Origin: Escherichia coli
GTDB lineage: Bacteria > Pseudomonadota > Gammaproteobacteria > Enterobacterales > Enterobacteriaceae
Direction: 5' to 3' (one strand)
Length of the DNA: 1,311 nt
NCBI RefSeq assembly: GCF_003334785.1
Contig: NZ_QOWV01000063.1
Shown: in pieces, positions 56 through 382 of the stretch
Layout of the letters: every line of letters begins with the position of its first letter
Numbering within the stretch: the first letter of the stretch is position 1
Notes under the pieces: model-generated
What the model was told of the DNA's origin: nothing
The model's database searches: none
Seen by the model: only the letters and a program-made list of their open reading frames with translations
Translations under genes and position numbers: made by a program

Positions 56-382
56 ATGACTAAAAATACTCGTTTTTCCCCCGAAGTCCGTCAGCGGGCG
101 ATTCGTATGGTTCTGGAAAGTCAGGATGAATATGACTCACAGTGGGCGGCAATTTGTTCCATTGCCCCAAAGATTGGCTGTACGCCGGAGACTCTGCGTG
201 TCTGGGTTCGCCAGCATGAGCGGGATACCGGGGGCGGTGATGGTGGGCTCACCAGCGCTGAACGTCAGCGTCTGAAAGAGCTGGAACGTGAAAATCGTGA
301 ACTGCGCCGCAGTAACGATATCCTTCGCCAGGCTTCCGCTTATTTTGCGAAGGCGGAGTTCGACCGCCTCTGGAAAAAATGA
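56..382 (+). CDS. IS3-family transposase OrfA (DNA-binding subunit with helix-turn-helix and leucine-zipper region), 108 aa
   Basis: ORF 56..382 preceded by an SD. The translation has an HTH-like segment ([28 protein letters not shown], about nt 134-205) and a heptad leucine pattern (L76, L83, L90, F97 in [25 protein letters not shown], about nt 251-355), as in IS3/IS911 OrfA proteins. It ends WKK-stop directly on an A6 run. Confidence 0.9.

Follow-up and report, generated by a model that had tools for sequence, protein, structure and literature searches.

IS629/IS1203 is the most active insertion sequence of Escherichia coli O157:H7 and drives much of the genome diversification of this lineage. 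The locus described here, a stretch of DNA of 1311 nt which was analysed over its whole length (hereafter, the window), raises the question of how OrfA, the small protein encoded by the first gene of this element, is built, and of whether its organisation is that of a protein which binds the ends of the element, associates with further copies of itself and regulates transposition.

Identity and layout of the element

The window contains a complete IS629/IS1203 element of the IS3 family (nt 2-1311, 1310 bp), with nt 1 as its sole flanking base. In a nucleotide search, it was identical over 1311/1311 positions to numerous copies from E. coli O157:H7 and strains related to it. RefSeq labels these copies 'IS3-like element IS1203 family transposase' and marks in them a programmed frameshift and an 'AL1L pseudoknot'. 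Matches of any quality were found in 4253 of the 5426 complete E. coli genomes. IS1203 is an isoform of IS629 (PMC3271280). Membership of the IS3 family, and of IS629/IS1203 within it, is clear from the full-length identity, the inverted repeats, the orfA and orfB frames with their frameshift signal, and the DDE domain, all of which are present. The left repeat begins TGAACCGCCCCGG and the ends of the element read TGAACC...GGTTCA, i.e., imperfect inverted repeats with 5'-TG...CA-3' termini. In an identical copy carried by E. coli O157:H7 PV15-279, the element lies inside the IS66-family ISEc8, between the tnpB gene of ISEc8 and its transposase gene, now a pseudogene (locus 1-4311), and a gene with a TOTE conflict-system primase domain lies next to it.

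The two reading frames and the other features of the element are collected in Table 1. The ATG of orfA (nt 56) is preceded by GAGG at nt 44-47. The orfB product matched the NCBIfam profile NF033516 (transpos_IS3) with E = 2.9e-94 and 316 bits, against a cutoff of 160, over profile positions 93-369, and OrfA spans positions 1-86 of this same profile. A scan restricted to consensus patterns detected no sigma-70 promoter upstream of orfA (window 1-60) or elsewhere in the element, and a weak native expression of orfA would be consistent with the lack of such a consensus match. Since the element, OrfA, its zipper-like segment and the frameshift signals are all intact, this copy looks competent for transposition.

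Table 1. Coordinates of the features of the IS629/IS1203 element in the window, and conservation of the heptad positions of OrfA in a 41-row alignment.
Feature	Position, nt (aa)	Strand	Evidence or description
IRL	2-26	+	25-nt arm, 88% complementary to 1287-1311
IRR	1287-1311	+	25-nt arm, imperfect complement of IRL
orfA	56-382	+	108 aa; ORF list, Pfam HTH_Tnp_1, NCBIfam transpos_IS3 positions 1-86, 2RN7
orfB	379-1269	+	296 aa, -1 frame relative to orfA; DDE catalytic part of OrfAB
Helix 1 of the N-terminal three-helix bundle	80-118 (aa 9-21)	+	AlphaFold2 model
HTH proper	140-229 (aa 29-58)	+	DSSP on AlphaFold2 model; inside HTH_Tnp_1 match
HTH helix 2	140-175 (aa 29-40)	+	DSSP on AlphaFold2 model
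HTH turn	(aa 41-43)	+	AlphaFold2 model
HTH recognition helix 3	185-229 (aa 44-58)	+	DSSP on AlphaFold2 model
Gly-rich flexible linker GGGDGGLT	230-253 (aa 59-66)	+	between HTH domain and zipper-like helix; non-helical
Long C-terminal helix	254-376 (aa 67-107)	+	AlphaFold2 model; without Pro or Gly
Heptad core	272-346 (aa 73-97)	+	a = L73, N80, N87, S94; d = L76, L83, L90, F97
d L76	281-283		40/41 rows
d L83	302-304		41/41 rows
d L90	323-325		40/41 rows
d F97	344-346		40/41 rows
a L73			L, I, V or M in all 41 rows
a N80			N in 23, V in 16 and L in 2 of 41 rows
a N87			invariant, 41/41 rows
a S94			40/41 rows
g-e' pair R72-E77			opposite charges, 37/41 rows
g-e' pair E79-R/K84			opposite charges, 41/41 rows
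ALIL pseudoknot	337-453	+	frameshift-stimulating RNA element; Rfam RF01497, also annotated by RefSeq
T TTT G slippery motif	343-347	+	on the F97 codon (TTT); candidate -1 frameshift site; read from sequence
A6 run, codons K107-K108	374-379	+	second candidate -1 slip site; sequence and ORF list

The helix-turn-helix domain and the hinge

It had been predicted from the letters of the window that OrfA carries a helix-turn-helix (HTH) motif, and this was clearly confirmed, both by a match to the Pfam profile HTH_Tnp_1 (PF01527) over aa 1-87 (E = 8.1e-12, model positions 1-74 of 75) and by a three-helix bundle in the AlphaFold2 model of the protein. This model, built from the query and 40 homologues, reached a mean pLDDT of 83.8, with block means above 90 for aa 11-50 and of 80 for aa 51-60, and the HTH residues W30, G41, C42, T46, L47 and W50 were kept in at least 90% of the homologues. 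The HTH assignment is thus near certain. As for its limits, the motif had been placed at nt 134-205, which do correspond to D27 and to the end of W50, respectively; the start of this box is right, but the last 24 nt or so of the recognition helix fall outside it, as does the first helix of the bundle (nt 80-118).

In a Foldseek search, the best match of the OrfA model was 2RN7, followed by 2JN6 and by homeodomains with weak E-values. 2JN6 is another protein of the HTH_Tnp_1 type and itself matches the family profile (E = 6.5e-6). By analogy with the homologues of IS911 and IS2, this homeodomain-like bundle (aa 9-58) would constitute the DNA-binding module of IS629 OrfA and recognise the terminal inverted repeats.

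The HTH domain is followed by a Gly-rich hinge, whose block pLDDT of 63 (aa 61-70) is the lowest of any internal stretch of the model, only the termini being similarly low. The hinge of OrfA is one residue longer than that of homologues 50-70% identical to it, which have D-x-G-x-R-x-G at this place. The stretch at nt 224-250 (aa 57-65, DTGGGDGGL) is itself unusually rich in Gly.

The C-terminal helix, its heptads and its relatives

Downstream of the hinge, the original prediction had recognised a heptad repeat, L76/L83/L90/F97, at about nt 251-355. The four residues are indeed present, with a spacing of seven, and this interval maps as T66-A100, on the long C-terminal helix of the model. Coiled-coil character was gauged by surrogates: sequence shuffling, a Fourier analysis of hydrophobicity at period 3.5, and conservation within the family. 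Among 20,000 shuffled sequences, 10% contained a run of four or more hydrophobic residues in heptad spacing, and 1.5% did so with at least three of them being Leu. The hydrophobicity power at period 3.5 was maximal at aa 73-100 (shuffle p ~0.01). Taken from the sequence of OrfA alone, the heptad signal is modest, and it is the conservation which makes it convincing. A representative protein search with OrfA yielded 13,112 proteins at E <= 0.001, and conservation was read from an alignment of 41 rows, i.e., the query and 40 full-length homologues 50-73% identical to it (Table 1). The partners of R72-E77 and of E79-R/K84 would be brought together if two helices paired in parallel and in register, and the combination of a buried Asn at an 'a' position with g-e' salt bridges is a hallmark of parallel dimeric zippers, discussed as such for IS2 (PMC3219604).

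This segment does not follow the canonical leucine zipper. The pattern L-x6-L-x6-L-x6-L is absent, with F97 as the fourth 'd' residue and E69 at the upstream 'd' position, and L73 is the sole hydrophobic 'a' residue, N80, N87 and S94 being polar. Because of F97 and of these polar 'a' residues, the motif is zipper-like rather than canonical. In the second half of the helix, g and e positions are rich in Ala (A86, A93 and A100 at g, A98 at e), and at most heptad positions of aa 86-104, even at b and c, which face outwards, the residue is kept in at least 90% of the homologues. Sequence and profile searches against the PDB returned, as coiled-coil relatives, designed miniproteins, RacA and ROCK1 only, none of them significant.

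The proposed likeness to the IS911-type architecture held. IS629/IS1203 and IS911 both belong to the IS3 family, and their OrfA proteins align at about 22% identity with a pairwise E of 2e-5. The IS911 OrfA used here (100 aa) was found at 100% identity in Shigella flexneri plasmids, and the DNA around it matched, at 98.9%, E. coli loci annotated 'IS911 family transposase'. On one such plasmid (NZ_CP026789, locus 889-2900), the IS911 copy is interrupted by IS2, as nested insertion sequences, and abuts the truncated 3' end of an IS629-like orfB (889-1254, minus strand). In the alignment, L70, I77, L84 and L91 of IS911 fall on L76, L83, L90 and F97 of IS629, and N81 falls on N87. Both elements have an N-terminal HTH followed by a four-heptad zipper-like segment, in OrfA as in OrfAB; in IS629, this segment consists of about four heptads on an uninterrupted helix after the HTH, in register with the leucine zipper (LZ) of IS911. 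IS629 differs from IS911 by its polar N80 and S94 at 'a', the Phe at the last 'd' position and the Gly-rich hinge. In IS911, the HTH is the specific DNA-binding domain and the LZ a multimerisation domain essential for activity, while OrfA serves as a regulator and a -1 frameshift produces OrfAB (PMC2909936, citing for the two domains Haren et al. 1998, 2000).

A similar picture emerged from IS2, whose OrfA is about 20% identical to that of IS629, with N94 and L97 aligned on N87 and L90. InsA/OrfAB of IS2 likewise combines a three-helix bundle (H + HTH) with a downstream coiled coil, termed 'atypical leucine zipper-like', in which an Asn is buried at 'a' (PMC3219604). At 'd', IS2 has Leu in only two positions, against three Leu and a Phe in IS629; at 'a', three positions of IS2 are hydrophobic, while those of IS629 are mostly polar. 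Residue numbers 73-100 of the two proteins are not positionally identical, the aligned heptads being offset by seven residues, i.e., one heptad. Five random point mutations in the LZ-like segment of IS2 abolished transposition and weakened or abolished the binding of the ends, and this segment scored 0.8-1.0 with PCOILS even though it failed the strict 2ZIP test (PMC3219604).

Eukaryotic zippers of the bZIP/GCN4 type share with OrfA the heptad Leu at 'd', the buried Asn at 'a' and the g-e' salt bridges, and together these traits would indicate a parallel dimer. OrfA differs from bZIP proteins in that it has no basic region, a separate HTH binding DNA in its place, and in that the strict four-Leu pattern is lacking. 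There was no sign of homology between bZIP proteins and OrfA, the match to the Pfam zipper TSC22 being non-significant (E = 0.18).

Of the deposited structures, the nearest to OrfA by sequence is 2RN7 ('IS629 orfA', TnpE, from Shigella flexneri, determined by NMR, NESG target SfR125). It is identical to OrfA at 101 of the 108 positions (E = 2.5e-65), from which it differs by I16V, D24G, A32T, G61D, S67T, L76P and Q92L. L76P places a proline at the first 'd' position of the zipper-like segment, and the protein whose structure was determined may for this reason have formed its helix or dimerised less readily. Only 71 columns of 2RN7 and of the OrfA model superpose, with a TM score of 0.50, which points to a difference in the orientation or the regularity of the long helix.

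Frameshift signals, and the proposed pairing and regulation

The end of the zipper-coding DNA also carries the signals for frameshifting. Rfam RF01497 (ALIL) matched over its full length with 121.5 bits, against a gathering score of 50 (E = 9e-33), and overlaps orfA codons 95-108; UAUUUUGC is the conserved 5' part of the ALIL consensus and holds T TTT G. As T TTT G coincides with the codon of F97, the end of the zipper-coding DNA doubles as a candidate frameshift site. The -1 frame stays open from nt 316 onwards, and a slip at nt 343-347 is predicted to yield OrfA residues 1-97 followed by residues read in the -1 frame. PGAP annotates a programmed frameshift in the joined CDS. The second candidate, the A6 run, lies 10 codons further on; it directly precedes the TGA stop of orfA (380-382), and its last A is also the first base of the orfB ATG (379-381). 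The run continues into ATGATG (window 374-384), and the stop of orfA overlaps the start of orfB. Such an arrangement would fit either a second -1 slip site or a translational coupling that yields free OrfB. Chen and Hu (2006) reportedly found T TTT G, and the second site as well, to be used in IS629.

The position of these signals constitutes the main structural departure from the IS911 paradigm. The A AAA AAG slip site of IS911 comes immediately after L84, and OrfA and OrfAB of that element therefore take their fourth heptad from different frames. In IS629, by contrast, the candidate sites lie at or after the fourth 'd' residue. All four 'd' residues being located at or upstream of both sites, they are common to every product, and OrfA and OrfAB would carry the same zipper.

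In another reading of the conserved helix, the helix is real without being a homodimeric zipper. Its conservation would then result from other constraints, either on the DNA (slippery sites, ALIL stem and overlapping -1 frame) or on a different protein interface, such as packing on the catalytic or 'M' domain of OrfAB or a higher-order bundle favoured by the Ala-rich e and g positions. In line with this, codons 95-108 are shared with the ALIL element and with the T4G and A6 motifs, three of the 'a' residues are polar (N80, N87 and S94), Ala occupies g86, g93, e98 and g100, and aa 86-104 are almost invariant beyond the core positions, outward b and c included, so that a coiled-coil interface alone cannot account for the conservation there. 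The pairing itself was modelled with AlphaFold2 as a linked dimer, i.e., a single chain made of aa 62-108, (GGS)10 and aa 62-108 again, with a paired alignment of 36 rows. This single-chain workaround, run without a control, gave two helices with no confident packing (pTM 0.31, mean pLDDT 56.6, helix-block pLDDT 57-77), a result that neither backs a dimer nor weighs against one. As for the constraints on the DNA, the RNA element begins at nt 337, 20-60 nt downstream of L76, L83, E79-R84 and N87, whose conservation RNA constraints therefore cannot explain. Furthermore, the invariant Asn at 'a' and the conserved opposite charges at g and e' are precisely the hallmarks of a parallel dimeric zipper (PMC3219604), and the homologous segments of IS911 and IS2 were shown by experiment to mediate oligomerisation (PMC2909936, PMC3219604). 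A helix devoted to something other than homodimeric pairing thus appears quite improbable. A chance L/L/L/F pattern without specific role in a helix rich in Leu, Arg and Glu, as the shuffles of this single sequence and the missing strict four-Leu pattern might suggest, is effectively refuted, and its probability negligible, in view of the four 'd' positions kept in at least 40 of the 41 rows, among homologues 50-73% identical to the query, and of heptads which align with those of IS911 and IS2 at about 20% identity.

A zipper function of the C-terminal helix of OrfA is likely. The more general two-module explanation, according to which the HTH binds the inverted repeats, the helix pairs in a zipper-like manner and OrfA regulates transposition, is highly likely. 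We infer from the homologues and from the literature how end binding, dimerisation and regulation would operate in IS629. The oligomerisation module (aa 67-107), one long amphipathic helix of four heptads placed after the Gly-rich hinge, would associate with a second copy of itself in a parallel, in-register coiled coil of leucine-zipper-like type, as a dimer or a higher oligomer. N87 would be buried at 'a', and R72-E77 and E79-R84 would form g-e' salt bridges. The frameshifted transposase OrfAB would begin with both of these modules as well, and OrfA and OrfAB may thus assemble into homo- and hetero-oligomers through their common zipper. OrfA, which has no catalytic domain, would consequently damp transposition. 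It would act as a regulator, chiefly an inhibitory one, through competition for the ends and/or through mixed, non-productive oligomers with OrfAB.

The regulatory role that had been proposed for OrfA agrees with published experiments. OrfA supplied alone indeed depresses the excision of IS1203v/IS629, with a frequency of 3.8e-9 for orfA alone vs. 7.8e-7 for the empty vector (bioRxiv 10.1101/2023.06.07.543989, reviewing Kusumoto et al.). The HTH-LZ map in the figure accompanying these experiments depicts the general organisation of the IS3 family (bioRxiv 10.1101/2023.06.07.543989). This architecture is already known for the IS3 family, and essentially for IS629 too, including through a deposited structure. 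The gain of the present analysis is a clean annotation of the window, to which little new is added.

One further possibility, which we regard as unlikely, is that the zipper of IS629 is a deliberately weak, exchangeable interface and that regulation proceeds mainly by mixing of OrfA and transposase subunits rather than by competition for the ends. It is suggested by the three polar 'a' residues, by the Ala-rich second half of the helix and by the coincidence of the F97 codon with the T TTT G slip site. Regulation by mixing would follow from the zipper being the same in OrfA and in either of the possible frameshift products. If it were true, the choice of the slip site (nt 343-347 or 374-379) would set what follows the zipper, and the presence of residues 98-108 of OrfA or of an alternative stretch of 11 residues could tune the stability of the oligomers. 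On the preferred two-module explanation, the DNA-binding and oligomerisation modules of OrfA would account for the self-limited transposition of IS629/IS1203.
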